Shown here: one piece after another, positions 577 through 56,528 of the stretch
How the letters are laid out: each line of letters opens with the position of its first letter
Numbering within the stretch: position 1 is the stretch's first letter
Assembly: GCA_900753245.1 (NCBI GenBank)
Contig: CAADYJ010000080.1
Span: 3,228 to 67,227, forward strand
Length of the DNA: 64,000 nt
DNA from: Clostridia bacterium
GTDB lineage: Bacteria > Bacillota > Clostridia > TANB77 > CAG-508
Direction of reading: 5' to 3'
The notes under the pieces: generated by a model
Seen by the model: only the letters and a program-made list of their open reading frames with translations
Told to the model about the DNA's origin: nothing
Database searches by the model: none
Position numbers and translations under genes: made by a program

Positions 577-725
577 TTTGTTTTTCCTCCTTTTGGATAT
601 AAGTTATAATTTCACTTTTCCTGAAATATAACATATGAATATTTTATTTGCAAGTGTTTTTCATAAAGTTTTTTTGCTTCAATCCTTCTATTTTCAAGGT
701 TTTCTTACGGAACTTTATAATTTAA

Positions 726-1742: not shown

Positions 1743-1788
1743 TTTTACCTCTTATTGTGGCAAAAGGGTCACCCCTTTTTACCACTTT

Positions 1789-3120: not shown

Positions 3121-3167
3121 AAAATTTCTCCCTTTTTTCTAAACTAAAATGATTCGTCCCTATTAGT

Positions 3168-27120: not shown

Positions 27121-28371
27121 TTATTTTCCTTTAAAATATAATAAAATAAAGTTTATAATATTAAATGTTAATGTAGCTGCTAATATTACTATTATTGCAA
27201 GATTTATTTTATTTGTTTTCTCTATATTTAAATCTTTATATGTAATATCATATTTATTTTTTATTTCATTATATAAATAATCTAGCTCTAATGTTTTTCT
27301 CCATTTTTCATACATTAGAGAGCCTTCCATATCATTAGTAATTTCTTGAATCCAAAAATCACTTGTAAATTTTAAAAATTTCTCTCTTGTTTGTGCAAAG
27401 TTTCTTTTTTGCATAAATTCTAAATTTATTTTCTTTAAGTATAATTTTTTATACAAAGCCAAAATATATGTATATAAATATTCTCTTTCATATATAAATG
27501 GTAATTTTGTATAATTTTCTACACTTGCACTAGAAGTTAGCAATGCTGTTGATTGCTTATTAAATCCTATTTTTGCATATTTTCTTGTTTCTAATATCTT
27601 TTCGTTTTCTAGCTTTTCATTTAAATTTACTTGATATGAACTAGGTAATACATTTGTAAATTTTATAAATTCTTCCTTTATATTTTCAAAATCATTATCT
27701 ATATTCCAACTATCTTGTTCTATACATGCATATGAATATGTTATAAACTTCTCTACGTCTAAATTCATATCTTTTGTGTTTATTGTTGGACCTGTAATTT
27801 TATTTATTATTGTAGATAATTCTTTAATATCTTTTAAATTATTTGTTTGTAATCGTATATTTTCATAGTCTTTTAAAAAACTATAATCTGCATTTATTTC
27901 CCTAAATTTATAATTAAAGTTTAATATATCAGAAAATTTATCATCATCTTCTACTATTGTTTTTAATAGTAAAAAACATATTCCACTTTTAAAACAAATT
28001 ATTTCTATTTTTTGTATATTAAAAAATATTCCACTTCCGCCTTCTTGTCCCATTTTTCCTTGTACTACATTTCCTAAAGAATATTCAAATATGTTACATT
28101 CGTTTTTAGCTAACAAATTTGCTTTAACACCGTCTTCTAATTCGTTTAAACTTTTCATTTGTCTTCTAGTACGTCCAAATGACCAAAATAGTTTTTCTCT
28201 AATATTAGGTAAAAAATATGTATATAAATTTAAATCTTTTTCTTTTTCAAATATTTTTAGTTCACACTTTTTATCTTTTAATAATTTTAATAAATATTTG
28301 TTATACTTCTTTTCCTCTACTAAATAAGGGTATATAAAGTAAGAATATTGATATTTTATCTTCTGTTCCAT
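27121..28371 (-). CDS. hypothetical protein, C-terminal single TM anchor
   Basis: 416 aa ORF with no recognisable motif. Hydrophobic C-terminus NLAIIVILAATLTFNIINFILLYF. Sits only 21 nt from acpS. Confidence 0.4.
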   Translation of the reverse strand: MEQKIKYQYSYFIYPYLVEEKKYNKYLLKLLKDKKCELKIFEKEKDLNLYTYFLPNIREKLFWSFGRTRRQMKSLNELEDGVKANLLAKNECNIFEYSLGNVVQGKMGQEGGSGIFFNIQKIEIICFKSGICFLLLKTIVEDDDKFSDILNFNYKFREINADYSFLKDYENIRLQTNNLKDIKELSTIINKITGPTINTKDMNLDVEKFITYSYACIEQDSWNIDNDFENIKEEFIKFTNVLPSSYQVNLNEKLENEKILETRKYAKIGFNKQSTALLTSSASVENYTKLPFIYEREYLYTYILALYKKLYLKKINLEFMQKRNFAQTREKFLKFTSDFWIQEITNDMEGSLMYEKWRKTLELDYLYNEIKNKYDITYKDLNIEKTNKINLAIIVILAATLTFNIINFILLYFKGK

Positions 28372-32814: not shown

Positions 32815-32852
32815 ATAAAAAAACCACACACTCTTTACTAAAGAGTGTGTGG
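32815..32852 (-). terminator. Strong rho-independent terminator after the lipoprotein gene
   Basis: CCACACACTCTTTA-c-TAAAGAGTGTGTGG is an almost perfect 14-bp GC-containing palindrome. A T7 run follows on the minus strand. Confidence 0.75.
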
Positions 32853-32876
32853 TGAATCAATGCGAATATTTAGTTT

Positions 32877-33500
32877 TTATTCAGTTGGCGGTGTGAGGTA
32901 GCAAGTTAATTTTTCTTTAGTTGCAATATTTCTAAGTGAAAATTCTTGTTCTCCATCCCAGTTAGAATATTCTGGATGGTATTCTACATATTTAGGCCAT
33001 TCTGAAACTTTTGAACCTAATGCAACTTTAAATCCATATCCATCCAAACCTTTGTTAAATAGTATTTTGTCTGCTGATTTTAATTGGTAATGCTGGTTCT
33101 CTTCCATATTAATAATATACTCTTCACTTTCATTATATATTACTATTGCTGGTTTGGCAGATTCTAATTGTCCCATATAATCTTCCATCGATGTAAAATC
33201 TGTGATGTATGTTACTTCACCTGGATCTGCAGAATCTGTTTCTTCTGCTGTTGTTTCTTCCTCTACTGTCTCATCTTCACTTGTTGTTTCCTCTGTTACT
33301 GCTTCATCTTCTTTTGTTTCAGGTTCTGCAGTAGGTTCTTCTTTTACTTCTTCAGTTGCTTCTTCTACTGTTGGCGTTTCGTCTGTAGCAACTTCTGGCT
33401 GTGTTTCTGCTTTTGAATTGCCACACCCAACAAGTAAACAAGCAATTAAGCTTAATGTAACAAGTAACCGCATTGATTTTGTTTTGTAATTCTTTTTCAT
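32877..33500 (-). CDS. lipoprotein with an acidic Thr/Glu-rich linker
   Basis: Lipobox LLVGC after a basic N-terminus. Then ETQPEVATDETPTVEEATEEVKEEPTAEPETKEDEAVTEETTSEDETVEEETTAEE low complexity. Unknown C-terminal domain. Confidence 0.55.
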   Translation of the reverse strand: MKKNYKTKSMRLLVTLSLIACLLVGCGNSKAETQPEVATDETPTVEEATEEVKEEPTAEPETKEDEAVTEETTSEDETVEEETTAEETDSADPGEVTYITDFTSMEDYMGQLESAKPAIVIYNESEEYIINMEENQHYQLKSADKILFNKGLDGYGFKVALGSKVSEWPKYVEYHPEYSNWDGEQEFSLRNIATKEKLTCYLTPPTE

Positions 33501-33675: not shown

Positions 33676-36600
33676 CTATTTTTTTAGTATTTTTCTTCTA
33701 ATAAATACTATTCCTCCAGCTAATAAACCAATTGCTATAATTGTTGTAATTGTAATTATAATGTATAATCCTGCATTACCAAATGGTGGTAATATTTTTA
33801 CTATTTCTGCTCTGTCTGAATCTATTTCTTGTGGTTCCATTGTTGGATCTTGATTTCCTACTACAGAATATTCGTTTCTTCTTCCTACATTGTTGCTTGT
33901 TTTTACTATTTCTACAATATTCTTGTATGTTAAATCATCTGTTTTGTTCTCTGCAGTTATTAATTGTGTTAATACTAAATTTGTACTTGCACTTGATTTT
34001 TTATTATCATAAAGATCTGGCACTAACTCTGTTTTAGCTATTGTAGCATTTTCTTTGGTTGTAATTATTGTATTATATCGTTCTACTTTTGATTTCAAAT
34101 TCTTATTTACTAAATCTTGAGTTTTATCTTGAGTTATTAACTTATCTTGAGTTATTACTTCCCAATCTGTATTTTCAGCTAAACTACTATCAAATTGTAA
34201 GTTATTTGCTACATAGTCTATTATTTGATTTGCAGTTGTTTTTACTATTGTGTTTTTATCGGCTACTGTTCCTGTGTAATAGAATTGATTATCTTTATAG
34301 TCTACTTCACCAACATTTGTTACTGTTATTTGGTAAGTAATTTGTATTTTTGCGCCATGCATTAATTCTTCATCCATGCTTAATTGAATTAATCCTAATC
34401 TAGAATCTTTTGTATTTTTTGCTCTAATGTTTGCTATACTTCCAAATTTATTTTCATCTAACATATTATTTTTATATCCTGTGTCATATTTTTTGTGATC
34501 TTTCCATAATATATTACTTGCTGTTTGTTTTGCATCAAATAGTGTAGATCCATCTGCTAATGTAAGTTTTACATTTGTTACTTCTTTATTTATTTCAAGT
34601 TGTGCTTTTGGTCTTTCTTCTAATCCTAAATCCACATTTTGAACTTTATATATTGAAGTATCTTGTACTGCATCTTTAGTATCTGTTTGTGTTCTATCAT
34701 ATTCGAATTCTATAACCATCATACCTGTTTCTGCTGTCATTTTAGTATTGTCAATTAAATCTTTTATTAAGTCTTCTCTTGAATTCATTGTATTATAATC
34801 AGCTTTATGAGCTGCTAATACTTCTGCTTTATAGTTTGTAACATTTTTTTCTGAATATTCTATTACTTTGTTTCTACGAGATTCTATATCTTTTGCATCT
34901 GATGCGTTTTGATTTTTGCTTAAAGATATACTATCCGCAGTAGTTATATCATACAAATATCCTTTTTGTTCATTATCGTTAAGTTGTTTCTTTATTGCTG
35001 TTTCATTATTTGTACAATTATCTGTATTATAAGCATGTATTTTTGTTATTATTTCTCCTTTTTGTTCTTGTCCATTTACCCATGTAGAGTTTCTTCTCCA
35101 TTCATATGTTTTGTTTTGAGGTATATCTTTTTGATATGTTGTAGATTTATAGTCTTGTCCATTGTAAGATTTGCTATTTAAGCCTCCTAATTCGCTTGGA
35201 TATACAGTTCTTACTGTATCACCATATATAAATCTTACTACATATTTACCAGGCATAAATGATTTAAATGCATATTTTCCTTTATGTTCATTTCCTAAAT
35301 CTATATTTCCTACAATGTTAGATAAACCTATAATTGGTGTTTCAGATTGTACAGTTCCTGAACCAGTTCCTTTTCCTATTGCATTTGTTCCAAAGTTACC
35401 TATTTGATTTGTTCCAAATTCTCTCCATACAAATTCTTTTCCATCATCTAATAATTCTACTAATTGTACAGTTACACCATCTATTAATGTTTCTGAGTTT
35501 TCTCTTAAACCATTTCCTATTGCTACTTTTTCTCCACTTACTTTTCTTTCATCTTCCCATACAGTTCCAGATATTACTCTATTATGATCATCATTGCGAT
35601 CTATTTTTAATTTAATATTTGGTGCTTTATCTGTATCGTCTTCAAAGTTTTTATAATTAGGTGTTCCATCTTTTGGTACATCTGTTGGATTTAAGTTACC
35701 TGGATTTGAATCTCTATCTACAATACCTGCTGGTTGTCCTGATACATCTCCTTCTACGTTTGGTATTGTTGTTCCTTCTTTATATTTAGTAGTATATCCA
35801 TTTATTTCTGCAATATTTTCTTTACCTACTCCAATTACATTTCCTGTTGCTAAATCTTCATCTAGTATAATCCAATCTTCATTGTTTTCAGTCTTTTTGT
35901 TTACTTCGAATGTTAAGTAAATATATGCTGTTTTTCCTGAAGTTAAATATAAACCTTCTGCTTCACTTCTTACATTATTTCCATTATTATCTATTTCTTG
36001 AGAGTTTTTGCCTAAACCAGTAATATATAAATTTTTATAATGGTTTATATCTGTTCTTGTTCCAGCTTGTTTATATATGCTTGCATTATTACCATTTACT
36101 AAGTATTTTTTATTGCTAACTTGAATATATGAACGTTCTGGTACATAAGTTAAATCTTCATCATAGTAATCTACTATTTCGTCTGCTCTACATAGTATGC
36201 TTTGTGATTGGTTTCTTACTCCTATTTTGTATGTAATATATACTTTTAATTCGTCATCTTTACTCTTTCCAAGTTCATTATAATTTCCGTACATACTTAC
36301 TTTGTATGCATAATCAGATGCATATAATTCTCTAGTATATTCTGTATTGTAATAACGTTTTTCTGAATCTATAAGTCCTATATCAGATAACCTTAAATCA
36401 ATATCCCATACATTTTGTACATTTTCACTTCCACAGTTTGGACATGTATTTACACCATAATCTTCTGAAAAGTTTAATTCATCATTTGTTCCTGTTCTTC
36501 CACAATTATTGCATTTAAATTTATCTAATTTATTGTATGTGTATTCATGTGTTTGACCATTTGTCTCTAGTGTTACTTTATATACATCTTTATTTAAAGC

Positions 36601-39600
36601 TAAATCTGAAGTTCTTCTTAATGTATATCCTTGATTAATGTATAAGTTAGCATCATTTTTGTATAAGTAATGTATTTTTTTTTCTATTACATTACTTCCA
36701 TTTATTTTTAACCCCTTCAATAGATTTAAATTGTATGTTGTCGTTCTCTTCTCTTGTTTATTTTTATCTTCTATTAATTCTTCATCTCCTGTAGCTATAA
36801 TAAAATTTGAATATATTGGATATAAATCGTTCTTACGCACTGTTTTATTGTTTTGTGTTACATCTTTTCCTGTATAAGAATTTAACATACAATCTTTTAC
36901 ATATTGTATCATTTCATTAATTTCAGTAGTATTACTATTTGATTTTTCTTTTATTAAGTTTCCAAATTCATCTATAACAGCTTCTTTTGTTTTTACATAT
37001 TCACCATTTTCGTTAAGAGTATAACCTTGTAATTGTTTTTTAGTAAATGTTTTATTTGTTCTATTGTTTTCTTCTGTTACAGTATAGTTTGCAGGTGATG
37101 AACCTATTGATGCAAATCTTGCATTTATTGCTTTTCTTTCTTCTTGTACATCTGTACCATTAGAATTTATATTCCAGGTTCCTTCTTTATTTTCTTCATA
37201 CTTAACCCATCCGTCGCCTTTATCAGATGGACTTACATATTCTACTGGTTCATAATATTGTGAATTATATGTAAATTCTACAAAATATTGATACATAGAA
37301 TTTATTCCTGTGAATAAATACCTACCATTAGAATCTGTTTTAGTTGGATTTTGTATTTGTTCTTTTTTTCCTTTTTTGTCTGTACCTTCATATGATGTTA
37401 ACTCAGCTTTTATTTTATTTCCATTTTTATCATATCTATATAAAGTTACAATTACGTTTGGCATAGGTTTATCAGTTTGATTATTTATTGCTTTTGATTT
37501 ATCGTATACATTATCATTTTCTGTCATCTTTCCGCCTTTTGTGTCTTCCCAAACTTGTCCGCCAAGTTCCATTGTTAAATCTAAATCATATGGTGTTATA
37601 GTTACTGTATACTTTTTCCATGTTCTTTTTCTACTTGTTAACATTGCTAATTTTTGTGCATTGTATTTTATTTTTGTATCTTCTTCCCAAGTTTGAAATC
37701 TGTATTTATAATAATAATACGTCCTTATTGTTATTTCAGTATCTCCTTCACCATCATTATCAGTATCTACCCATTTTTTATCACATCCACTTTCTGTTCC
37801 AGTATTTTCCCATTTCAATCTTCCTCTTATCTGAAGAATTCTTCCTTTTCCAGTATATGTTGTATATTTAGCTTCTGTAGTTTGTAAATATGCGAAGTTC
37901 ATTTTTACTTCTACTGATGTAGGATAATTAGCTTCTTCCGCATTAAATTTTACCCAAAATTTTTCACCACTTGTTGGATATTCATTTCCATTAAGTGTTA
38001 TAATTTGTATTTTATCTAATCCTAATTTTGTAACATTATTATTTACTGCTGAATTTTTAGTTTCTATCCATATATCTTCTATATATGAAAATTTAAGATT
38101 ATCTGGATACTGTACTGAAAAAGGTCCTGCTATATATGTCTTTTTATCTCTTTCAACTACTATCTTAGAATCCGAACTAAATGGTACTACATGATCTTCA
38201 TAATTTTTTAAATATGTATTGTAATAATCTTGATATTTATCAGCTTCTTCTTTTAAGGATGTTGCATTACTATTACTATCTGAGGTATCGTAAGCATCCC
38301 CTTCATTAAATCCAGGTTTATCCTTCCATAAAGCGTCTTGTATTACTTGTTCATCTGCTATATCACTAAATGTTGATGTATAATTTCCCTTTTTAAATTT
38401 TATTTTATCACTAGTAGGGCTAAATTCTGGTCCTGAACTTAATATATATGCTTCTTTATTATTTTTAGGTGTTGAGCTTCCCGCTTCTGACCATGTAGGT
38501 GTTTCGCAATATACGTTTCCATAATATTCATTCTCTCTAAAATCATCTATAATTGTTGGAGTTGTAAAACTAAATCCTTTATAATATTGAAATAACTGTG
38601 TTGATACATTAGTTGATGCTTTATAATAGTCTCCTCCATCTAATAGCTTTTTCGCTTCAGCTTTTGCTGAGGCTTTTCCTGCATATGTATAATAATTTAT
38701 TATTCTTTCATCTATATTTCCTGTAACATATTGATCAATTCGGTTAATAACTGGTGTAAATCTTATACTTCCATGTTTTTGTTTGCATAATAATAAACTT
38801 AGAGTATCTTTTATTGTTTTATTATTTTCTCCTCCAGATATGCTATAATTATGACTACCATTATTATAAATTGTAGGTAAGAATTCTAATTTATTTGTAT
38901 TAGCATCTGTATGTTTCCAATCATAATGTGCTGTTTTATCCCAAGAACCTGGATTTTTTGTTATTTCTGTTGTGTTAGCTGAAGCATTAAAATGTTTTTT
39001 ATTTATATCTTCTATTTCTTCAAGCGAAGCTCTCACTTTACTTACAAGTACTCTTTTTATTCCTCCACATGTATATTCAGTTACATTTCCTACTTTTACA
39101 GTTGCTGTACATTTATATTCTTTATATGTGCATTTATATGTTCTATCATTTATATCTTCAAATACTGTTACTGTTCCAAGATATTGTAATGGTCCAACAT
39201 GATTATCTGGGTCAAGTCCATAATTATATTTTTTTCCATTATAAGTATATTCTGCATTACTATATATTAAACTTGAATCTTGCACTTCTTTTTGATAATC
39301 TTGCTCATCATTTTTATACGTTTCACAACAAGGATACCATTTATGCCAAATTGCATAATTATTACATGTTGCTTTCTTTTTTCTATGCTCTATAGGCGCT
39401 TCTTCATGTTCATCTGGATTATAAACTAATTCCGTATGACTTGGATGTTTTGAACATTTATATTCTATAGCTGTTATACATGTTGGATCAGGATCGTTGG
39501 CATTGCATTTTTCTAGATAAGGTTTATGATTTTTTGAATTTATTTTTGTATCATAATCTTTTCCACATGATTTACAATGATTTTTTCCTTTAGTAACACA

Positions 39601-39972
39601 ATCCCCTTTAGAAACTGGTGTTTGGTCTCCTACATGATTATTAGGATCTATATCTCCTACATCGTAATCTTTATTACATGATGTACAATGCATTTTTTTC
39701 TTTGATATACAATTAGCTGCTGATTGTGTTTTTTGTGTTCCTGTATGGTTATCTGCATTCTTACTACCTTTTCTATATTCTTGTTTGCACTGTTTACAAT
39801 ACCATACTTCTCTACTTGTACAAGTAGCATCTGCTCTCTTTTCTTGTTTTGTATCGTCATTATGTGTACATTTAGTTGCTCCAATTGATTGAGTAGAATA
39901 TATTACTGTTAAACCTGCAAAAGCTAAGAATAACGCTATTAATATAGTTATTATTTTCATTCGTTTTTCCAC
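33676..39972 (-). CDS. giant secreted cell-surface protein B1 (2098 aa): signal peptide, Cys-rich repeats, Cna-B/SdrD-B-like and DUF11-like domains, C-terminal sorting-signal-like tail (ILPPFGN + TM + RRKILKK). Probable GTG start
   Basis: Cna-B-like units, for example QVWEDTKGGKMTENDNVYD...NVIVTLYRYDKNGNKI...TDSNGRYLFTGI and ISGTVWEDERK...GVTVQLVELLDDGKEF. C-terminal ...IQITYQITVTNVGEVDY.... Paralogous to B2 over the C-terminal ~900 aa. GGAAGGTG RBS lies 7 nt before the GTG, which is 19 nt after the A1 stop. Confidence 0.75.
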   Translation of the reverse strand: MEKRMKIITILIALFLAFAGLTVIYSTQSIGATKCTHNDDTKQEKRADATCTSREVWYCKQCKQEYRKGSKNADNHTGTQKTQSAANCISKKKMHCTSCNKDYDVGDIDPNNHVGDQTPVSKGDCVTKGKNHCKSCGKDYDTKINSKNHKPYLEKCNANDPDPTCITAIEYKCSKHPSHTELVYNPDEHEEAPIEHRKKKATCNNYAIWHKWYPCCETYKNDEQDYQKEVQDSSLIYSNAEYTYNGKKYNYGLDPDNHVGPLQYLGTVTVFEDINDRTYKCTYKEYKCTATVKVGNVTEYTCGGIKRVLVSKVRASLEEIEDINKKHFNASANTTEITKNPGSWDKTAHYDWKHTDANTNKLEFLPTIYNNGSHNYSISGGENNKTIKDTLSLLLCKQKHGSIRFTPVINRIDQYVTGNIDERIINYYTYAGKASAKAEAKKLLDGGDYYKASTNVSTQLFQYYKGFSFTTPTIIDDFRENEYYGNVYCETPTWSEAGSSTPKNNKEAYILSSGPEFSPTSDKIKFKKGNYTSTFSDIADEQVIQDALWKDKPGFNEGDAYDTSDSNSNATSLKEEADKYQDYYNTYLKNYEDHVVPFSSDSKIVVERDKKTYIAGPFSVQYPDNLKFSYIEDIWIETKNSAVNNNVTKLGLDKIQIITLNGNEYPTSGEKFWVKFNAEEANYPTSVEVKMNFAYLQTTEAKYTTYTGKGRILQIRGRLKWENTGTESGCDKKWVDTDNDGEGDTEITIRTYYYYKYRFQTWEEDTKIKYNAQKLAMLTSRKRTWKKYTVTITPYDLDLTMELGGQVWEDTKGGKMTENDNVYDKSKAINNQTDKPMPNVIVTLYRYDKNGNKIKAELTSYEGTDKKGKKEQIQNPTKTDSNGRYLFTGINSMYQYFVEFTYNSQYYEPVEYVSPSDKGDGWVKYEENKEGTWNINSNGTDVQEERKAINARFASIGSSPANYTVTEENNRTNKTFTKKQLQGYTLNENGEYVKTKEAVIDEFGNLIKEKSNSNTTEINEMIQYVKDCMLNSYTGKDVTQNNKTVRKNDLYPIYSNFIIATGDEELIEDKNKQEKRTTTYNLNLLKGLKINGSNVIEKKIHYLYKNDANLYINQGYTLRRTSDLALNKDVYKVTLETNGQTHEYTYNKLDKFKCNNCGRTGTNDELNFSEDYGVNTCPNCGSENVQNVWDIDLRLSDIGLIDSEKRYYNTEYTRELYASDYAYKVSMYGNYNELGKSKDDELKVYITYKIGVRNQSQSILCRADEIVDYYDEDLTYVPERSYIQVSNKKYLVNGNNASIYKQAGTRTDINHYKNLYITGLGKNSQEIDNNGNNVRSEAEGLYLTSGKTAYIYLTFEVNKKTENNEDWIILDEDLATGNVIGVGKENIAEINGYTTKYKEGTTIPNVEGDVSGQPAGIVDRDSNPGNLNPTDVPKDGTPNYKNFEDDTDKAPNIKLKIDRNDDHNRVISGTVWEDERKVSGEKVAIGNGLRENSETLIDGVTVQLVELLDDGKEFVWREFGTNQIGNFGTNAIGKGTGSGTVQSETPIIGLSNIVGNIDLGNEHKGKYAFKSFMPGKYVVRFIYGDTVRTVYPSELGGLNSKSYNGQDYKSTTYQKDIPQNKTYEWRRNSTWVNGQEQKGEIITKIHAYNTDNCTNNETAIKKQLNDNEQKGYLYDITTADSISLSKNQNASDAKDIESRRNKVIEYSEKNVTNYKAEVLAAHKADYNTMNSREDLIKDLIDNTKMTAETGMMVIEFEYDRTQTDTKDAVQDTSIYKVQNVDLGLEERPKAQLEINKEVTNVKLTLADGSTLFDAKQTASNILWKDHKKYDTGYKNNMLDENKFGSIANIRAKNTKDSRLGLIQLSMDEELMHGAKIQITYQITVTNVGEVDYKDNQFYYTGTVADKNTIVKTTANQIIDYVANNLQFDSSLAENTDWEVITQDKLITQDKTQDLVNKNLKSKVERYNTIITTKENATIAKTELVPDLYDNKKSSASTNLVLTQLITAENKTDDLTYKNIVEIVKTSNNVGRRNEYSVVGNQDPTMEPQEIDSDRAEIVKILPPFGNAGLYIIITITTIIAIGLLAGGIVFIRRKILKK

Positions 39973-39990: not shown

Positions 39991-42900
39991 CTATCCTAAT
40001 ATTTTTCTCTTTATTACATAAGCACTTGCTGTTATAGCACTTATTATTCCTAAACTTAATACTATAAATAATATTGTCTCACCAGTTTTTACTGTTAAAA
40101 GTACATCTGCTGAAGACATATCATCTTCTCCAGATACTTTATTTGCTGGTGTTGAGTCTACATCTTGTAAGCCTAAGTCATTATATGCTTCTTGTATTTC
40201 TGCTGTATTATTAATTAACCCTACATTTTCTTGTGTTAGCTTTTTAGTTAATAATAATGTTATTTCTTTTGTTTCTCCTGGATTAATTAAAGTATTTGCT
40301 AAACTTGAACTATAAATTGCTCCATTTTCTCCTTGATACCAATCTTTATTTAGTTCTGAATTGAATTTTAGTTCTGCTGGAATGTAGTCTGCTATTTTTT
40401 TAGCATATCCAGATACAGCACCTTCGTTAGTTACTTTAATTTTATATTCTATTACAATTGTTGTAGAATTAATTTGTTTTCCTACTAAATCACGTTTTGC
40501 AAGTTTTGTATCTTTATAATCATATGTTTTTGTTCCTGTAGAATCTTGAACTGTTATTTTTGATACTGCTTTGTCTAGTTTTAAGTCAAATTTAGGATTT
40601 ACTACTAACCCTAAGTCTATATTATAGATATTTGAATTTGTTACTTCTATTTCTTCTGTTATTGCTGCTGTTCTTTTTTCTTCTCCTAATATTATTTGTG
40701 TATCTATAGCATCTGAATTTAATGTTGAATCTACTCCTTGCTTTCTATAAGTAGTGCTACTGTAATTTGCTGTATCGTATAAGAATATTACTGTATATTT
40801 TCCTTTTGGTACTTCTGTAAATGTGTATTTTCCATCTTCTGATGTTGAAATTTTTTCTTTTTCTAAGTTTCCTGTTACATTGTTTAATAACATAACTTCA
40901 ACATTTTGCATTTTCTTTTCTTGTTCATCTTTTTGTCCATCTTTATTTTCATCTAGCCATACTTGTCCACTTATTCTTTTGTTTTCTGACACATTAGGAT
41001 TATCATTGTCTGTAATTTCTGTAGCCTTTAAAGTATGTGAAATAGAATTTATTTCTATTTCTTTTTTATCTATTGTTGCTGTTATTTTATTTGTTATTTT
41101 TGTATCTTCTTCAACATACCCTACTCTAGCATATATCTTTATTTCTTGCTTTTCACCATCCTTTAATGCTAATATAATTTTTAGTTCATTGTCTTCTGTT
41201 AAAACTATTCCTTTTATTTCTTCTTCTTTTAAATCTTTCATTATTGTAGCTTTTTCAAATACTAATTCTTTTGGAAATTTATCTATAAGTTTTATTCCCT
41301 TACTTTCTCCTGTTTTACTTCCTTTAGATTCTATTATAATTTTATATTCAAATTCTTCTGTTCCACTTATATTTTCTCCTTCTGGTATAGTACAAGATTG
41401 AGTTATACTTAAAGAATTTTTTATAATTGTTATTACTTTTTCGTCTGTATTTTCTTTTTCTACATTATCTGCATATACAGTAGTTTTTATTTTTAAATCT
41501 TTAGAATATACTTCTTCTTTTGTTTCTTTTACTTTTAAATTTATTTTTAAAGTTTGAGAGTCTTGAATTTTTAGTTCTAATCCTGTAATTTTCAAAATTT
41601 CTGTTTTTTCATCATATGTTATTTTCGATTTATCTATTTCTTGTTTTCCATATGTTGCTTTTATAAATTCTAATTCTGTAGGTATATTAATTTCTATTAT
41701 AGTATTTTTAGTTTCATAATATCCATATATGTTTAACTCATAATTAACATTCGTTCCTTCTTCTACATTTTTTATATTGTTTTCTTCATTATCTACTGAT
41801 ATTTCTTGTTCTAAAGAAAAAACCTTATTTCTTACATAGTTAGTTATTTTATCTGTTTCTATTTTGGCTTCTAATCCTTCATATTCTATTGTAGCTTGTG
41901 TCGAGATCTCTTCTTTTTCATTAATATCTCCATCTATTCTTTCTATATAAAATTTAAATATTTTTTCTATTGTTTCTCCTTGTTTTAATGTTGATATTGT
42001 ACATATTCCATCTTTAATATTTTCATCATCTCCTGAATATATTGCATTTTCAGGAGTTGGAACTGTTATTTTTAAATTATTAGCTGCTAAATCTCCAGAG
42101 TTTGTTACTTTAACTGTATATTCAATTTCATCGTCTGATAATATTGTTGCTCCATTTTCTACATTTGCACTTATACTTGCTTCTATTTTTGGTCCTTGTC
42201 CTGTTGTTGCACCAACTTTTGCTGTTTCTTGTCTATCTTCTACTGTTCCTTCTTCTAAATTATTTGAATAATATACTGCATATGTTTCAAATGAAGATTG
42301 GTTATGTTCTAGTCCTTCTTCTACATTTGCATTATAATTAAATGTTATTGCCTCTCCTGTTGGCATAACATAATCGTTTGTTACTATTAAATAAGATTTA
42401 ACTTTACTTAAATCTGTTGGTTCTGCTACCCATCCATTTGATTGTACATTTAAGTCTTTTGTTGCTTCTCCATTTTCTGAGTAATAAACTTGTACTTTAT
42501 TTGAATCTATTCCTTCTACACTTATTCCTGTTGTTAAGTCTAAATCCATTGTTGAGTTTAAATCTTTGTTGCTTAATATTTCTTTGTTTCCTGCAAATGG
42601 TGTTCTTCCTAAGATTGAAACATTTTCTATATCGTTTTTATAGTTATTCATTACACTCATTTTAAATGTTGCTTCTTTTTGGCTTGATAGTATTGGTAAT
42701 TCTGCAACTTTTTCTTCACCTGTAATTGATGTTAATTCTTCTGCTCCATCTTTATAGTTACTAATTCCATTCATTGTAACTATTCCAACTGGTGCTGAAA
42801 AACTTATTTTATTTGTTACTTCATTTATTTCTGAGTTTTCATCATTTTCGTTTGTTACTACCATTGATATTTCTGAATCTATATTTGGTGTTAGTTTGTT

Positions 42901-44904
42901 TACTGTTATGTCTGCTGTAATAACTACGTTTGTTCCTCCTGCTAAATTTTCTAAATTATATTGTGTTTGTGTTCCTTGTAATTCCAATGCTATTGTTTTT
43001 GTTCCATCTGCATTTTGTATTAAGTTTGCATTTTTTACTGTTAATTCTTTATCAAATAATACTTGTATGTTTTTTACATTAATACTTTCTATATAAGAAG
43101 GTAATTTAATTTGTATTGTTGGATTTTTATATAGTTTGCAATCTAAAGAGTTTGTTTTTAGTATTGCTTTTATTTCTACATTTTCGTTTGTTACTACTGT
43201 TGATAGGTTTTGATTGTTTATTACTAATTCTGTTTCAAAACTTGGCTCTACAAATGCTACTACTTTATTTGCTGTTTTTTGTTCTACTATTTGTCCTGCA
43301 TATATTGCATCTACAGTTGTATTTATTTCTAATGAAGTAAATTTTTCCATTTGCTTTTTGCTGTATTTTATATCTGTTTTTATTGCTTTTGTTGCTTTTA
43401 CTTTTATTTCACCTTCTGTTAATGGTTTGCTTGTTTCCATTGCAATTTCAGAGGCTTCTATATTAGATATGTCTACTTCATATTTTTCTTTGTTTATTGT
43501 GTCTATTATTGTGTTTCCTACTTTTATATTAATAAATCCATCTTCTCCTAAGAATTTATTAAACTCTTCTTTTTCTACACTTACTTTCTTAATATATTGT
43601 GTAGCTGCTCCTTTTGTTTTTTCGTCTATTACAAAGTTATCTGTATTTAAGTTTATTGCTATGCTATCTACTATATCTACTAATCCTATATTGGCTGTTA
43701 TGTTTTCTTCGTATTGTGTTTCATTTTTTTCTGTTGCTTCATAATTTGCATATATATAACCTTTGCTTAATGTTTCTACGTTAGTGTTTACTTCTGTATT
43801 TATTACGTTTCCTATTTGATCTTTTAATAGTATTTCTCCTTTTGCTTCATTTTCTATTATGTCTTCTTTTGCTCCATATGTTGTTATTTGTGCTTTTGTT
43901 TGTATTTGTATTTTATTTCCTTCTTCTGGCACATTGTTTAATATTTCTTGTGGATATATGTATGTTATTATGAATTTGTCTTCTGCATTTTTACTCCAAG
44001 AAATATTTCCTTGTTCATCTATTTTGTTTTCTACTTTTATTGTTATTTTTCCTGTTTGTTCGTCATATTGATAGTTTTCTTCGTTAAAGTTTTGTGCGGT
44101 TTCGTCTCCATTTGTTGCTTTTGTACTTTCTGCTACTATTTTTACTGAAGTTGGTTTTTGGTTTGCTATTACTGGTGCTATTATTTCTATATTTTCTTCT
44201 TTTACTGGCATAGCATTATTGGCTACTGATGATTTTATTTGTGTTTGTAACATTACTCCTTGGTTGTTTGCTACTGTATATGGTATATATCTTGTAATTT
44301 GTTCTTCTAATGCTAATGTTGTTTCTTGTGTCCAATCTAGTTTTACTTTTATTTGTGCTTTTATTTGTTTTTCTTTTCCTTTTGCATCTATGTATGTTCC
44401 TGTCAATTTCGCTATGTTTTCTTGACTAAATTGGTTTAATGTTATTGTATCTTTATTGTCAAAAGATATTGGGATTTGAACACTTACTTGTTTGTCTTTA
44501 TTGATTTGGTTTAGTTCTATGCTATTTTCTTCTTTGTTTAATTTTGCTACTGCTTTATTTTCTTGTGCTAAGTCTTGTAGTTTAAAGTTTGCAGTTTTAT
44601 TTTCCTCATTTGCTCCAAATTCTATTTTTGCATTTTTTAAATATCCAGCGTTTTTAACAGCAATACCTATGTTAATGCTGTTTTCTTCTCCTATTTTGCT
44701 TTCTTTTTCGTGTGTCTTGCTATTTTGACTTACAAAGTACGCGTCAAATTCTACATTTTCGTTGTTTGTTTTCACACCTTGTACTTCTAGTTCATTTTCT
44801 GCTGCATATACTTTTTTCGCATAAATTCCTATTGTTGATGCATATGCTAAAAGCATGACCATTACTATTTCACTTGCTATTATTTTGCGAATTATTTTTT
44901 TCAT
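39991..44904 (-). CDS. giant secreted cell-surface protein A1 (~1637 aa from the second ATG): multiple Ig-like/DUF11 repeats, a Cna-B domain, isopeptide-pilin-like C-terminal domain, C-terminal LLTVKTGE + TM + KRKILG
   Basis: Signal peptide MKKIIRKIIASEIVMVMLLAYA. DUF11-like YTVKVTNSGDLAANNLKITVP. Cna-B ISGQVWLDENKDGQKDEQEKKMQNVEVMLLNN...DGKYTFTEVPKGKYTV. GGGGAGG RBS sits before the second ATG (44904). Paralogous to A2. Confidence 0.75.
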   Translation of the reverse strand: MKKIIRKIIASEIVMVMLLAYASTIGIYAKKVYAAENELEVQGVKTNNENVEFDAYFVSQNSKTHEKESKIGEENSINIGIAVKNAGYLKNAKIEFGANEENKTANFKLQDLAQENKAVAKLNKEENSIELNQINKDKQVSVQIPISFDNKDTITLNQFSQENIAKLTGTYIDAKGKEKQIKAQIKVKLDWTQETTLALEEQITRYIPYTVANNQGVMLQTQIKSSVANNAMPVKEENIEIIAPVIANQKPTSVKIVAESTKATNGDETAQNFNEENYQYDEQTGKITIKVENKIDEQGNISWSKNAEDKFIITYIYPQEILNNVPEEGNKIQIQTKAQITTYGAKEDIIENEAKGEILLKDQIGNVINTEVNTNVETLSKGYIYANYEATEKNETQYEENITANIGLVDIVDSIAINLNTDNFVIDEKTKGAATQYIKKVSVEKEEFNKFLGEDGFINIKVGNTIIDTINKEKYEVDISNIEASEIAMETSKPLTEGEIKVKATKAIKTDIKYSKKQMEKFTSLEINTTVDAIYAGQIVEQKTANKVVAFVEPSFETELVINNQNLSTVVTNENVEIKAILKTNSLDCKLYKNPTIQIKLPSYIESINVKNIQVLFDKELTVKNANLIQNADGTKTIALELQGTQTQYNLENLAGGTNVVITADITVNKLTPNIDSEISMVVTNENDENSEINEVTNKISFSAPVGIVTMNGISNYKDGAEELTSITGEEKVAELPILSSQKEATFKMSVMNNYKNDIENVSILGRTPFAGNKEILSNKDLNSTMDLDLTTGISVEGIDSNKVQVYYSENGEATKDLNVQSNGWVAEPTDLSKVKSYLIVTNDYVMPTGEAITFNYNANVEEGLEHNQSSFETYAVYYSNNLEEGTVEDRQETAKVGATTGQGPKIEASISANVENGATILSDDEIEYTVKVTNSGDLAANNLKITVPTPENAIYSGDDENIKDGICTISTLKQGETIEKIFKFYIERIDGDINEKEEISTQATIEYEGLEAKIETDKITNYVRNKVFSLEQEISVDNEENNIKNVEEGTNVNYELNIYGYYETKNTIIEINIPTELEFIKATYGKQEIDKSKITYDEKTEILKITGLELKIQDSQTLKINLKVKETKEEVYSKDLKIKTTVYADNVEKENTDEKVITIIKNSLSITQSCTIPEGENISGTEEFEYKIIIESKGSKTGESKGIKLIDKFPKELVFEKATIMKDLKEEEIKGIVLTEDNELKIILALKDGEKQEIKIYARVGYVEEDTKITNKITATIDKKEIEINSISHTLKATEITDNDNPNVSENKRISGQVWLDENKDGQKDEQEKKMQNVEVMLLNNVTGNLEKEKISTSEDGKYTFTEVPKGKYTVIFLYDTANYSSTTYRKQGVDSTLNSDAIDTQIILGEEKRTAAITEEIEVTNSNIYNIDLGLVVNPKFDLKLDKAVSKITVQDSTGTKTYDYKDTKLAKRDLVGKQINSTTIVIEYKIKVTNEGAVSGYAKKIADYIPAELKFNSELNKDWYQGENGAIYSSSLANTLINPGETKEITLLLTKKLTQENVGLINNTAEIQEAYNDLGLQDVDSTPANKVSGEDDMSSADVLLTVKTGETILFIVLSLGIISAITASAYVIKRKILG

Positions 44905-45366
44905 AGTTCTTTTTCCTCCCCAATTTTTTGACATATTTTTGGCTTATTATATATATTAACTAAATTTTTGCATATTTTTTGTCGTTTTTCAAGGTGTTTT
45001 CCTTTGATAGCAAGCGTTACAGCGTTTATCTCTTTACGGAAACTAGTTTTCAGCTTTTTTTATTAAATTTTAGTTACATTGTTACATTTTTATTTCTTAT
45101 TGCTTTTTTGCTGTTTTTTTCCATTTTTTTATTTTTTATATTTTTTGTATTCCTTCTGTTTCTAGTATTTTATGTTTTTTATTGTATTTTTTGTTTTTAT
45201 TGATTTTTTTTATTTTTTATTTTTTTGTCTTTTTTAGCTTGTAAATACTACGGCAATTGGATTTGCGTGTTTTTTAACTTTTATCTTAATTCAACTAAAT
45301 ATCTAACTTGTACTTTTGTATAAATTGATTAAAGTTATAATTTATAATACTTTTTCTTGTTTTCTG

Positions 45367-45566: not shown

Positions 45567-46568
45567 TTGACTAAAAAAAATCTTCCAGCTCCTAAAATGG
45601 ATGTTGTTTTTCAATCTCTTTTTAAAAAGGGAAATGAAAATATAACTATGGCACTTATTTCTGACATTATAGGTAGAAAAATTAAAAAAATAGATTTAGA
45701 TAAAAACAAAAGTTTACTTAGAGAATATACTAAAGATAAATTGGGAATTTTGGATCTAATTGCTGTTTTAGACGACGGTGATATTTGTAATATTGAAGTT
45801 CAACTAGCTGATAATAAAGATATAGAAAAACGCTTATTATATTACCATTCTAAAATTTATTCTCAACAGATGTTGGTTGGTGACAAATATGTTGATTTGA
45901 ATAAGACTATTTCTATTGCTTTATTAGATTATAATTTAGAACAATTACGTCATGTAGAAAAAGCTCATACTTCATGGCATATTAAAGAGGATGAAATTAA
46001 TGGATTAATATTGACAAATGAGTTAGAGATGCATATAATAGAGTTACCAAAGATAAGAAAGATGAGTAGGAATGGTAAAAAAGATGCTATTATTGATTGG
46101 ATGTTATTTTTGGATAATCCAAATAATAAGGAGGTTTCTGAAATAATGAAAACAAACAGAGAAATAGAAGAAGCAATGCAAAAGTTAGAGGAAATCACTT
46201 CTGATGAGGAATTAATGAGAATTATTGATTTAAGACGAAAAGCAATATTAGATGAAAATCAAAGAAGATATATTGCAGAAAAAGAAAGAAAAGAGGCCGT
46301 AGAAGAAGCTGTTAAAGAAGGGCTTGAAAGAGGCATGAAACAAGGTATAGAACAAGGCATTAAAAAGGGTATTGAACAAGGCATTGAACAAGGCATTGAA
46401 CAAGGCATTGAGCAAGGAATCGAGCAAGGAATCGAGCAAGGAATCGAGCAAGGCACTAAAAATGAAAAATTTAGAATTGCTAAAAATTTGATTTCTCTTA
46501 AATATGAAATTGATAGTATTGTAAAAATAACTGGCTTATCTAAAGAAGAAATTGAAACTATTTTATAA
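45567..46568 (+). CDS. Rpn-family (YhgA-like, PD-(D/E)XK) recombination-promoting nuclease / putative transposase, intact. TTG start
   Basis: 333 aa. Contains the D...DxxxE(V)Q block (ILDLIAVLDDGDICNIEVQLAD), a coiled-coil C-terminal half, and the conserved tail ITGLSKEEIETIL shared with the 7644 pseudogene. Confidence 0.7.
   Translation: MTKKNLPAPKMDVVFQSLFKKGNENITMALISDIIGRKIKKIDLDKNKSLLREYTKDKLGILDLIAVLDDGDICNIEVQLADNKDIEKRLLYYHSKIYSQQMLVGDKYVDLNKTISIALLDYNLEQLRHVEKAHTSWHIKEDEINGLILTNELEMHIIELPKIRKMSRNGKKDAIIDWMLFLDNPNNKEVSEIMKTNREIEEAMQKLEEITSDEELMRIIDLRRKAILDENQRRYIAEKERKEAVEEAVKEGLERGMKQGIEQGIKKGIEQGIEQGIEQGIEQGIEQGIEQGIEQGTKNEKFRIAKNLISLKYEIDSIVKITGLSKEEIETIL
46344..46451 (+). repeat. 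Coding microsatellite: 9 tandem 12-nt units (GGCATTGAACAA / GGAATCGAGCAA) encoding (GIEQ)n in the Rpn protein
   Basis: Read directly. The protein shows GIEQGIKKGIEQGIEQGIEQGIEQGIEQGIEQGIEQ. Confidence 0.85.
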
Positions 46569-46589
46569 ATAAAATGTATTAATTTAATA

Positions 46590-46628
46590 ATAAAAAACCA
46601 ATTAAGATTTTTTCTTAATTGGTTTTTT
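46590..46628. terminator. Bidirectional terminator between the Rpn gene and B2
   Basis: AAAAAACCAATTAAGA-TTTTT-TCTTAATTGGTTTTTT. The 12-bp stem is flanked by A-runs and T-runs. Confidence 0.65.
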
Positions 46629-46633
46629 ATTAC

Positions 46634-49600
46634 TTATTTTTTTAAAAATTTCTTTTTGATAACAATTATTCCTATTACTAAAATTCCTACGGCTGCGAAT
46701 ATTGTGCTTGTTATAATTATTATATTCTTCATTTCACCAAATGGTGGTAATATTTTCACTACTTCTGCTTTATCACTATCTACTTCTGCTGATTCTGACG
46801 TTGGATCTTGATTTCCTACTATAGAATAACTGTTTATTCTACCTACTGTATTACTTGTTTTAACTATTTCTACTATGTTTTTATATGTTAAGTCTGAGCT
46901 TTCATTTTCTGGTGTAATACTTTGTGTTAGATATAAAGTTTCTTCTGCACTACTATTTCCTCCATTTGTTTGTGAGTAAATAACTGGTACTAATGGTGTT
47001 TTATTAATTGCACTATTTTCTGTTGTTGTTATTATTGTATTAAATGTATTTACTTTGTCTTGTAATCTAGCATTTACTAACTTTTGATTTGTTATTTCTT
47101 CTTTACTTATTACTTTCCAGTTAGAGTTTTTAGTATTATCAAATTGTAAATTATTTGCAACATAATCTATTACTTGGTTTGCTGTAGTTGTTGCTACTTT
47201 CTTTTTATCTGATACTATTCCTGTGTAATAGAATTGGTTATCATTATAGTCTGTTTCTCCTACGTTCGTTACTGTTAATTTATAAGTAATTTGTATTGTA
47301 GCACCATGCATTAATTCTTCGTCCATACTTAATTGTACTAATCCTGATTTTTTTGCATTAGAATTTCTTATTTGAGTTAATATTCCTTTTGCATAAACTG
47401 GTTCATATGTTTCATTTTTCTTCCACAATACATTTGTTGCTGTTTGCTTTGCATCAAATAATACTGAACCATCTGCAAGTACTACTTTTACATTGTCCAC
47501 TTTTTTGTTTATTGCAAGTTGTGCTTTTGGTCTTTCTTCTAATCCCAAGTTTACGTTTGCAACATTGTATTGTATGTCATTGTTTCCTTGTTGATTTCCT
47601 AATTCTATTTTATCTTTTTCTACTTCTACATTAATGTTACCTGTTTCTGCTGTCATGGCTGTTAATTGTTTAAATTTTTCTATTTGTTGTCTTAATGTTT
47701 CTTTTGTTGTTCCTTCTGGAACATTTCTATAAGATGCTAATAATTCTGCCATTTCGTTTGTTATATTGTTAGAAGAATTTTTTATTGTTTCTTGTCTACG
47801 GCTTGCAATATCTTTTGCCACAGATACATCTTTTCCGTCTAATGCTGTTATATTATATAAATATGTTCCTGTTTCATTTTGATTTGCATAGTCTTTATAA
47901 CCATATATATCTTTATTTAAATATTTTAAGTAATATTGTCCTTCTTGAGATATTCCTGGCTCATATGTTGTTGATTTATAGTCTTGTCCATTGTAAGATC
48001 TTGAATTTTTTCCTTTTGCTCCTAATGTATTTGTTACGTCTGTTTGTGTATTTGTTAATACTGTCTCATCGTTGTCTCCGTAGATAAATCTTACTATGTA
48101 GTTTCCTGGTACAAATGATGTAAATACATATTTACCTTTTGTATTATCTGTTACTGTTTGTACTATGTTATTTGAATTAATTATTGGTTCATATGTTCCT
48201 TGGCCTGTTAAAAATTCTTTCCATACGTATTGACTACCATTATCCATTAATTCTACTAATTGTACTCTTACTCCGTCAATTCCTTCTTCTCCTTTTTCTT
48301 TTTTACCATTACCTGTTGCTGTTGCTTGAGCTTTTTCATATTCTGTTCTATTATCTTCCCAAGCTGTTCCTTCTATTGTTCTGTTGTCTTTTTCTAATAT
48401 AACTCTTAAGTTTATTGCTTTATCTGTATCATCTTCAAATTTATTTACATCTACTGGTGACTCAATATTTCCTGGTACAGAATCTCTATCAAAAAGTCCT
48501 GCTACTTTATTATTATCTGTTAATCCTACGTTTGGAATTTCTGTTCCTTCTTTATATTTTGTGCTATATCCATTTATTTCTGCTATATTTTGTTTTCCTA
48601 CATCTTGTTCATCTAAATAGATAAATCTTGATGGATCCTTTCTTACTTTAAATGTTAAGTAAATATTGGCTGTTTGTCCTGATGATAAATATATTTCATC
48701 TAAGCCTGTAATATATAAGTTGTTATACCCTTCACTTTCTAATGATGTTCTTGTATTTGCTGAATATTTACTTTGTTCACTTGCTTTTACATTTTCATAT
48801 TTTACCTTGTTAGCTCCACTTCCAATTTCTATATATGAACGATCATTTACATATTCGTATTCTTTATCATAGTAATCTACTATTTCTTCTATTTTTGTTC
48901 TTATTGATTGTGATTGGTTCCTTACCCTAATTTTATATGTTACATATACTTCTAATTCTCTTTGCTCAGTTTCTCCATATTTTTGAGCTATTTGATTAGT
49001 ATTCAATGAATTTTGTTCTGAGTAATCTTCTACTTTGTATAGGTAATCTGATTTGTATATTTCTCTTGAATATTGTGTATTATAATATGCTGCATCTGAA
49101 AGTCTTACTCCTATATCCCATATTGTATTGTCGCCTTCTTGAGTTACTTGTTCCTCTTTTGCTCTTTGGTTATAGTAGTATGTTTCTTGTCTTCCTTTTA
49201 TTTCTATTGTTGCTTTTTCTATTTCTTTCATTAATGCTACATCTGCTACTTCTCTTCTTGCTAAGCCAAAGTCTATTTGTAGATGCTCTGGATATAATGC
49301 TTTATATTCTACTCCCATTATTGTTCTTGATTTATATCCTATAGTATATTTATCATATATTGGATATACTTTTCTTTGAGTATCGTTTCCTGTAAATGAT
49401 GATATTCTATTGTCTTCTATGAATTGTAATTTTCTTTTTGTTTCTTCTGTGTTTCCAAATTTTTCTAATGCATTTTTATATGCTTTTTCATAACTTTTTG
49501 TTTCTGATGCTTGATCTATTACGTATTCATATATTTCTTTTATTCCGGATTCAGATTTTTCATTTATATCACTTGTATATGTATTTCCTGATGCATTACT

Positions 49601-56331: not shown

Positions 56332-56528
56332 TACATAATCCTCCTACTATATTAAACTCTAAAATTTATTATACACTTTTTTTCCAGTTTTTTCAAGGTT
56401 TTTGTAAAAAAAATGAACTTTTTATGTAATCTTTTAAAATGTTTTTTATTGATATTATTTATTTTTATATTTTTTGTAACATTTTTTCACTTTCTTCATA
56501 TTATTATATATATATGAGGGGTGATAAT

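Follow-up and report, generated by a model that had tools for sequence, protein, structure and literature searches.

Sortase substrates carry a Thr (rarely Ala or Ser) at position P1 and a Gly at position P1', on the two sides of the bond that the sortase cuts. The very long, rod-like surface protein Ebh of Staphylococcus aureus is held by a C-terminal membrane-spanning anchor instead of a sortase, and to our knowledge no conserved LPXTG-derived motif precedes its helix. In the FCT pilus of Streptococcus pyogenes, the class B sortase Spy0129 reads VPPTG and (E/Q)VPTG, and the tip adhesin Cpa ends in VPPTG (PMC3019223). We describe here a variant of such tails, found at the C-terminal end of two large proteins, B1 and B2, encoded in a 64,000-nucleotide (nt) stretch of contig CAADYJ010000080.1 from a Clostridia bacterium (this whole stretch is called the window below). 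Both proteins end in the motif K-I-L-P-P-F-G, a hydrophobic helix and a basic tail, and each gene lies directly downstream of the gene of a partner protein, A, whose own tail carries Thr-Gly. As judged from sequence comparison, the B tail is a C-terminal anchor signal derived from a sorting signal of the LPXTG/VPPTG class.

The B Tails in the Window

The original prediction, a note made from the sequence of the window, had assigned to B1 and B2 a second, non-canonical signal, K-I-L-P-P-F-G. This was exact on the minus strand, where 33676–33798 encodes KILPPFGNAGLYIIITITTIIAIGLLAGGIVFIRRKILKK and a stop codon, the C-terminal end of B1, and 46634–46756 encodes KILPPFGEMKNIIIITSTIFAAVGILVIGIIVIKKKFLKK and a stop codon, the C-terminal end of B2. 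The plus-strand reading of these two segments showed stops throughout and was rejected. Each of the two tails has a coding length of 41 codons, and a peptide spanning the motif, with Phe at P1, is EIVKILPPFGNAG. The features of the B genes and of their ends are the following:

33676–39972, minus strand: gene B1, 2098 amino acids (aa) counted from GTG; the ATG at 39960 is likely the true start, and the sequence MKIITILIALF... reads as a signal peptide
33778–33795, minus strand: B1 motif I-L-P-P-F-G, in which I-L close the last beta strand and P-P-F-G form a hinge in the AlphaFold (AF2) model presented below
33700–33768, minus strand: B1 hydrophobic helix LYIIITITTIIAIGLLAGGIVFI, 23 aa, preceded by the polar spacer N-A-G
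33676–33699, minus strand: B1 basic tail RRKILKK and stop codon
46634–51313, minus strand: gene B2, 1559 aa, opening with a signal or anchor sequence and containing SdrD_B and CarboxypepD_reg domains
46736–46753, minus strand: B2 motif I-L-P-P-F-G
46634–46735, minus strand: B2 spacer EMKN, helix IIIITSTIFAAVGILVIGIIVI, tail KKKFLKK and stop codon

The two ends share the same layout, with K-I-L-P-P-F-G followed by 3–4 polar residues, a hydrophobic helix of 22–23 residues and a tail of K/R. The succession of motif, hydrophobic stretch and positive tail is thus found at the extreme C-terminus of both B1 and B2. It resembles that of LPXTG substrates (TIGR01167), in which a motif precedes about 20–23 hydrophobic residues and a basic tail; 29–36 residues follow the motif Gly in B (84 distinct tails). 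The N-termini MKIITILIALFLAFAGLTVIYS... and MKKIIKNTSIAIIILLTLVLGYILL... were predicted by direct reading to be Sec signal peptides, and both A and B begin with a signal-peptide-like sequence. In B1, Pfam gave only a weak SdrD_B match.

Conservation of the Motif

The motif had also been described as strictly conserved between paralogues that are otherwise diverged. It is indeed identical in B1 and B2, whose overall identity is 37.7% over an alignable length of about 1500 residues. However, the last 317 residues of the two proteins are 63% identical, and the chance of an identical 7-residue run at a given position there is roughly 0.63^7, or ~4%. Because of this high local identity, the B1/B2 pair alone is weak evidence for selection.

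The C-terminal 317 aa of B1, used as a query, retrieved 106 unnamed metagenomic proteins, of which ~95 had the same kind of tail, and the scan of one genome per species returned 190 relatives. All of the latter belonged to metagenome-assembled genomes (MAGs) of uncultured low-GC gut Clostridia, obtained from human, rabbit, mouse, chicken and ruminant guts and titled "uncultured Clostridia", "Clostridiaceae" or "Clostridium sp." at NCBI. The relatives include Clostridium sp. CAG:245 and the circular 1.57-Mb MAG OZ007016.1, which has an F-type B; we take the CAG-245-like genomes to belong to TANB77, a small-genome clostridial order in GTDB. The exhaustive search of 1.84 billion representatives with a profile of the tail gave 332 clusters at 50% identity (E up to 1e-3), and all the matches were at the extreme C-terminus.

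The entropy of the columns I, L, P, P, F and G was 0.37, 0.42, 0.33, 0, 0.69 and 0 bit among the 84 distinct tails, compared to 1–3.5 bit for most of the flanking columns, and the motif was the least variable block within the C-terminal region. The aromatic residue at P1, with 0.69 bit, was also far less variable than the Tyr positions +5 and +6 of this tail, which are likewise aromatic and interfacial (~1.9–2.0 bit). The 83 tails collected from 81 loci were distributed into ILPPFG (69), ILPPYG (6), ILTPFG (4), VLPPFG (2), ILPPTG (1) and ILPPQG (1). Among complete or near-complete MAGs with A-B pairs, which also include JBKUYM010000001.1, CAKPAI010000001.1 and CANPVM010000001.1, B reads ILPPQG in GCA_964487865.1 and ITPPLG in GCA_947629555.1; in locus L085 it reads ITPPFG. 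When 221 distinct sequences were considered, the residue before the Gly was F in 192, Y in 14, T in 12, L in two and Q in one; the Pro at P2 and the Gly at P1' were invariant, and P3 was a Pro in 211. In a neighbour-joining tree of the C-terminal domain, a crude tree with midpoint rooting that should not be over-read, the replacement of Phe by Tyr was the only recurrent change from Phe and occurred in at least 8 separate places, which points to the need for an aromatic side chain. None of the one-step codon neighbours of Thr was found at P1, an observation of little weight as independent changes away from Thr were few, perhaps four or five.

The codons of the motif varied synonymously (ATA/ATT/ATC, TTA/CTT/CTA/TTG and GGT/GGA) and selection therefore acts at the protein level. 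A cause at the RNA or DNA level was considered for CCACCATTTGGTG, a palindrome flagged as a hairpin by the scan, and was rejected given this synonymous variation; the small palindrome is a by-product of the conservation of the peptide. The low entropy of the motif columns (0–0.7 bit), the 332 clusters and the synonymous codons indicate that the tail is under strong purifying selection, and on this point the original prediction was right.

Relation to Thr-Gly Sorting Signals

Whereas sortase substrates have Thr-Gly at the scissile bond, both B1 and B2 have Phe-Gly. Tails with a Thr were present in basal homologues at the same position as LPPFG, in the forms ILPPTG, I[IVM]PPTG, VIPPTG and VTTPTG, and the B protein of one related locus (L083) ends in IVPPTG. 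In the neighbour-joining tree these Thr-form tails fell in basal groups, interleaved with Phe groups. The ILPPTG tail of homologue P0074 passed the TIGR01167 model LPXTG_anchor (19.7 bits, with a cut-off of 15.9), the A1 tail was just under the cut-off with 14.1 bits, and the LPPFG tails had no match on this model at E up to 10. In a scan of the isolated tails against NCBIfam, again at E up to 10, nothing recognised LPPFG.

The partner proteins provided a second comparison. Their genes and tail motifs are located as follows:

39991–44934, minus strand: gene A1, 1647 aa, with CLIPPER/DUF11 and SdrD_B domains, directly upstream of B1
40081–40092, minus strand: A1 tail motif V-K-T-G, the T-G of which is homologous in register to the F-G of B
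51319–56331, minus strand: gene A2, 1670 aa
51436–51447, minus strand: A2 tail motif I-K-T-G

A1 ends in ...ADVLLTVKTGE, a helix and KRKILG (tail ...SSADVLLTVKTGE), and A2 in ...ADLVISIKTGE, a helix and a basic tail (tail ...SSADLVISIKTGE). The consensus of the A tails is [STGA]-[VILM]-[KV...]-T-G-[KED], in which T-G is invariant (59/59 distinct tails) and the helix follows almost immediately. A and B have homologous C-terminal domains (hhalign profile–profile comparison, probability 99.4%, E 9e-22), and the tails are in register, with S-V-K-T-G of A aligned over L-P-P-F-G of B. Both proteins also end in IKKKVL-like tails, with a Gly near the inner end of the helix.

Because the basal homologues have [ILVM]PPTG tails and the homologous A tail places T-G over F-G, LPPFG can be read with confidence as the descendant of a Thr-Gly sorting signal of the LPXTG/VPPTG class, in which Phe, or in some cases Tyr or Leu, has taken the place of the P1 Thr. 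The likeness to LPXTG with the scissile Thr replaced, seen in the original prediction, is therefore more than superficial, and its view that A and B carry two distinct signals also holds: the B tail is distinct from the T-G signal of A, yet homologous to it.

B proteins resemble LPXTG substrates in having a signal peptide, a giant multi-domain adhesin-like carrier and, in basal homologues, an ILPPTG tail. They differ from them by the Phe, Tyr or Leu at P1, by an invariant Pro at P2 instead of P3, by the failure of LPPFG to score, and by having no sortase tied to them. Because of this invariant Pro at P2, the closest described motif is of the (E/Q/V)(V/P)PTG type, not LPXTG proper. The S. pyogenes FCT system shares with the A-B loci the register x-[VP]-P-T-G with Pro at P2, as well as two motifs on partner proteins of one cluster. 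Unlike the A-B loci, the FCT cluster contains a sortase and the chaperone SipA. The A and B subunits are 5–6 times larger than the FCT ones, the FCT motifs all keep Thr, and the thioester domain of Cpa was not confirmed in B. In the searchable literature, there was no description of LPPFG, LPXFG, LPXYG or LPPYG as a sorting motif, nor anything pertinent on sortases in TANB77.

Predicted Structure of the B C-Terminal Domain

For the C-terminal 317 residues of B1, a 58-sequence alignment gave an AF2 model with a predicted local distance difference test (pLDDT) value of 85 and a predicted template modelling score (pTM) of 0.81. In this model the last beta strand corresponds to residues 276–280, with I-L at its end, and P-P-F-G (residues 281–284) is a short linker of lower confidence lying outside the fold. 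The helix begins 2 residues past the Gly and covers residues 286–313, so that there is no spacer between the fold, the motif and the membrane helix.

Foldseek returned only weak matches to immunoglobulin (Ig)-like domains, namely integrin calf domains with a transmembrane (TM) helix, the pilins SpaD and SpaA, and Cna, which are not diagnostic. The top match, also weak, was a full-length integrin alpha chain with an Ig-like domain, a TM helix and a basic tail. The identity at the helix positions was 0.27–0.35, compared to 0.18 after shuffling; this modest conservation above composition is compatible with cleaved and uncleaved tails alike. Helix and IKKKVL-like tail show moderate conservation in A as well as in B.

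The Two-Gene Module

A was immediately 5' of B in all the loci examined, and several loci contained two or three pairs. A followed by B is a conserved two-gene fibrillar-adhesin module of uncultured low-GC spore-forming gut Clostridia. CLIPPER, formerly DUF11, is an isopeptide-bonded stalk domain of fibrillar adhesins (PMC12617251). When the first 1.45 Mb of the loci were screened for open reading frames (ORFs) of 250 aa or more that end in a helix and a basic tail, every one was of the A or B type, except for a few false positives (an ABC permease, for example). In the window, the gap between the two genes is 5 nt for A2-B2 and about 18–30 nt for A1-B1, and the two operons are in tandem, separated by a transposase gene. 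Two features lie between the operons, outside the signals:

45567–46568, plus strand: PD-(D/E)XK family transposase, ending in a (GIEQ)n repeat, which marks the duplication junction
46588–46632, strand not assigned: terminator-like hairpin with a 20-bp stem, just downstream of B2

A second PD-(D/E)XK transposase gene, N-terminally truncated, is located at 7644–8309 (minus strand). By BLASTP, A1 and A2 could be aligned only over their last ~300 residues (48% identity), the ~1300 N-terminal residues having diverged beyond pairwise detection. Immediately upstream of A, on the opposite strand, are small genes of ~50, 100 and 150 aa (window 56439–57160, plus strand), and this set recurs in distant relatives (L001 81–1079, L082 3627–4564, L085 3639–4618 and L088 4179–5111). 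These small genes were considered as processing factors and set aside: they had no enzyme-like family match, only a faint similarity to YlbD_coat.

About half of the B N-termini contain thioester-like motifs, Y-C-x-[EQ]-x-G and, ~80 residues later, [KI]-Q-x-A-[ILVM]-W. In an alignment of 13 B N-termini, the Q, A and W were invariant and the Cys was at least 90% conserved. The motifs are at residues ~85–175 of B2 (window ~50790–51060, minus strand) and ~480–550 of B1. No thioester domain was matched by Pfam in 13 N-termini, nor by the PDB profile search. The homologue search with the N-terminus gave 2 matches, and its AF2 model, built from 4 sequences, had a pLDDT of 42.

Cys-rich stretches, unusual for an extracellular adhesin, were observed in both B proteins. 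B1, unlike B2, opens with 4–5 Cys-rich repeats (C..C ... C..C ... [DN].[DN]NH.G) at residues ~30–190 (window 39400–39880, minus strand), and its residues 1152–1188 form a zinc-ribbon-like CxxC...CxxC (Pfam Zn_ribbon_8, E 0.005). In B2 there is a Cys/His-rich stretch, HSHTAHCDGHSDGKGGITYCSGCC.

Genomic Context and Search for a Sortase

Sortases were searched for by three routes: Pfam (PF04203) on the called genes, a regular expression combining TLxTC, His and Arg, and phmmer with the S. aureus SrtA sequence. Neither the window nor 91 related loci, 1.59 Mb in total, yielded a sortase, and in particular none turned up within about 10 kb of an A-B pair in these loci. The TLxTC matches were spurious antisense ORFs, three "candidates" being antisense ORFs of rpoC, or unrelated genes. 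With none in the window or in the 91 loci, the A-B system does not include a sortase dedicated to it and encoded in the operon.

Elsewhere, the window carries the housekeeping genes that make up the backbone of a spore-forming Firmicute (~27% GC), with rpoB/rpoC, dnaB, L9, GdpP, SpoIIE, MreBCD, a PBP, MinC and RadC. Clustering of the neighbours in the related loci showed that the conserved ones (SpoIIE, a WG-repeat protein, TatD, AcpS and MinC) are housekeeping genes; no conserved enzyme neighbour emerged as a candidate for processing. The neighbour set varied with the locus, being MinC...SpoIIE–WG repeat–unknown–AcpS–TatD, as in the window, or rpoB/rpoC, or EF-Ts. Another conserved neighbour, present in 26 loci where it separates the WG-repeat gene from AcpS, is an ORF of 416 aa (27121–28371, minus strand, in the window), whose product has a C-terminal helix and matches no Pfam family. 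Downstream of B1, a lipoprotein-like ORF of 207 aa (32877–33500, minus strand) shows a signal peptide and a Cys followed by an acidic low-complexity linker; it is served by a promoter-like site of its own and by a strong terminator with a 14-bp stem at 32823–32853 (minus strand). It was considered as a processing factor and rejected, having no enzyme-like family match. It is not kept beside B in other loci.

One related locus, L082, contains at positions 1–3588 a SpaA-like protein of 2974 aa with a poly-Asn stretch and a canonical end made of K-LPQTG-K, a helix and RKYVLR. The same locus holds an A-B pair ending in SVKTGQ and IIPPTG, respectively, so that three different sorting-type motifs are present within 15 kb. 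This lineage is close to lineages of the Phe and Leu types (69% identity for the neighbouring thioesterase and 37–61% for the B proteins). The canonical LPQTG protein suggests that sortase anchoring is probably present in the clade.

Cleavage or Permanent Anchoring of B

It is possible that the Phe-Gly bond of B is cut by a sortase encoded elsewhere in the genome, and we tentatively prefer cleavage over no cleavage by a narrow margin. B is inferred to be exported by the Sec pathway and then stopped in transfer by the helix and the basic tail, which would hold it at the membrane. If B is cleaved, the six-residue motif would next be read by a transpeptidase of the sortase family encoded elsewhere; this enzyme would cut between Phe and Gly and attach B either to the wall or to A. 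Several points speak for such an enzyme: the run of six near-invariant residues, of which four fall in the linker beyond the fold; the tight constraint on P1 compared to the interfacial Tyr positions; the recurrent change from Phe to Tyr only; the LPXTG-like ancestry of the tail; the canonical LPQTG protein of L082; and the signal peptides and the domains of the two proteins (CLIPPER and SdrD_B stalk domains in A, SdrD_B in B), which are typical of sortase cargo. Class B sortases are able to read more than one motif, both VPPTG and EVPTG in one case (PMC3019223) and both (S/P)PXTG and NVQTG in another (PMC4155245). The substrates of C. difficile SrtB (PMC4155245, PMC5569036) are comparable to B in being clostridial and in having non-LP motifs, and C. 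difficile has a single, unlinked sortase; the A-type tail, [ST]-[VIL]-[KV]-T-G, resembles a hybrid of the C. difficile motifs SPKTG and NVQTG. In the C. difficile motifs, unlike in B, Thr-Gly is always retained and cleavage has been shown to occur between these two residues; nothing like P-P-F-G has been described.

Several observations weigh against cleavage, in addition to the failure to find a sortase in the window and the related loci. We know of no characterised sortase with an aromatic residue at P1, and Thr was kept in all the curated sorting-signal models that turned up in the NCBIfam scan. As A always has a Thr before the Gly, an enzyme tolerant of Phe would have to handle A and B differently. 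The T, L and F forms were found within one tight clade in which the tails are otherwise near-identical, and this mixture fits a P1 residue irrelevant to an enzyme as well as it fits a tolerant enzyme. In C. difficile, the SPSTG and SPQTG proteins are not cleaved in vivo despite their Thr (PMC5569036). The tail is moreover bound to the B family among the matches listed, and is not portable. The word-indexed search with the tail profile gave only short B-tail fragments, and among the best 150 of the 332 clusters of the exhaustive search, the 129 newly listed proteins consisted of 117 with the B C-terminal domain, 3 long divergent relatives and 9 short fragments. The idea of a portable signal on unrelated proteins was rejected for these best 150 of 332 matches, which held only the B family or fragments. 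The original prediction had suggested a database search for a C-terminus made of LPPFG, a TM helix and a basic tail; it leads to 332 clusters and, among the matches listed, to B-family proteins only. Sorting signals are classically recognised by one tail being shared among unrelated cargo proteins, and this argument is not available for LPPFG.

A more detailed version of cleavage is rather doubtful. A transpeptidase, namely a sortase with an enlarged hydrophobic S1 pocket, would cut after Phe or Tyr in I-L-P-P-[F/Y]-G and attach B to the wall or to a lysine of A, whereas the x-h-x-T-G tail of A would be handled separately.

The alternative that survives best, a serious one if still short of probable, is that the F-type tail is refractory to sortase and that B is kept in the membrane, uncleaved, by its helix and basic tail, for which Ebh provides a model. 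I-L-P-P-F-G would then be a rigid juxtamembrane hinge, made up of the end of a strand, a kink at Pro-Pro, an aromatic side chain positioned at the lipid interface and a Gly that caps the helix; the wall-linked partner may be A, whose T-G is invariant, or A and B may be paired via their helices. Retention of B in the membrane beside a wall-linked A was also the alternative given in the original prediction. Most of the points raised against cleavage favour this permanent anchor: the housekeeping nature of the conserved neighbours and the 91 loci devoid of an enzyme gene near the A-B pair, the strict Thr of A compared to the Phe of B, which argues for different handling, the exchange of T, L and F with the rest of the tail unchanged, the lack of any sortase known to us that accepts an aromatic P1, and the motif-bearing C. 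difficile proteins left uncleaved (PMC5569036). It also agrees with the AF2 model, in which the fold runs directly into the motif and the helix, with the conservation of the helix above shuffled sequences, with the IKKKVL-like tails shared by A and B, and with the weak top match to an integrin alpha chain. However, six near-invariant residues in a row, four of them in an unstructured linker, exceed the usual need of a hinge. If the interface alone mattered, Leu, Ile, Val, Met and Trp would be expected at P1, where they almost never occur, and P1 would not be so much more constrained than the interfacial Tyr positions +5 and +6.

The pilus-like division of labour put forward in the original prediction, with one subunit polymerised, the other forming the base or the tip, and two dedicated sortases reading the two signals, is improbable. 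In its favour, A and B are strictly paired in an operon and each has a conserved signal of its own, different from that of the partner; moreover, the ancestral VPPTG-like motif corresponds to the one carried by Cpa, an S. pyogenes tip adhesin joined to the backbone pilin by a class B sortase (PMC3019223). The Cys (YC.[EQ].G) and Q.A[ILVM]W motifs of the B N-termini are likewise reminiscent of thioester adhesin domains, but such a domain was confirmed neither by Pfam nor by the PDB profile search or AF2. Pilus sortases sit inside pilin clusters and none was present in the 91 loci, so that operon-encoded sortases find no support; the subunits, with 1500–2100 aa, are several times the size of known pilins.

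Processing by an enzyme other than a sortase (an exosortase or archaeosortase, a rhombosortase, a CPBP-type or another intramembrane protease) is very improbable. The B tail shares, by analogy only, the design of PGF-CTERM, PEP-CTERM and GlyGly-CTERM, in which a short conserved motif is followed at once by a helix and a basic cluster that close the protein, and the PGFG of PGF-CTERM is superficially like PPFG. Unlike these signals, which are portable across families and decorate many unrelated proteins per genome, the LPPFG tail is tied to one family and its ancestry is LPXTG-like, the homology to PPTG and T-G tails pointing to a sortase past. No NCBIfam sorting-domain model, whether PGF-CTERM, PEP-CTERM, GlyGly-CTERM or others, matched the tails at E up to 10, and the survey of the neighbours revealed no gene for such an enzyme nearby. 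Finally, a heptapeptide without special function, shared only through a recent duplication of B1 and B2, would not be rare with 63% identity over the last 317 aa but is refuted by the retention of the motif, with synonymous codons, in hundreds of clusters down to about 30–40% domain identity.

Significance

The B family is large and widespread: its clusters number in the hundreds and come from the gut metagenomes of humans, mice, rabbits, chickens and ruminants. It has stably exchanged the Thr of its sorting signal for an aromatic residue, the rest of the signal being kept under strong selection. Motif-based LPXTG predictors miss the LPPFG proteins. If B is cleaved, the known chemistry of sortases would be widened and an orthogonal recognition tag for protein ligation would be gained. 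Should a transpeptidase cutting after Phe or Tyr exist, LPPFG would be the first natural sorting signal without a Thr at the scissile position, and the enzyme and its motif would make a ready orthogonal sortase/tag pair. If B is not cleaved, it would be a natural case of a wall-sorting signal turned into a permanent membrane anchor while its partner keeps Thr-Gly. Either way, the B tail shows how the dominant surface adhesins of poorly known, uncultured gut Clostridia are held on the cell.

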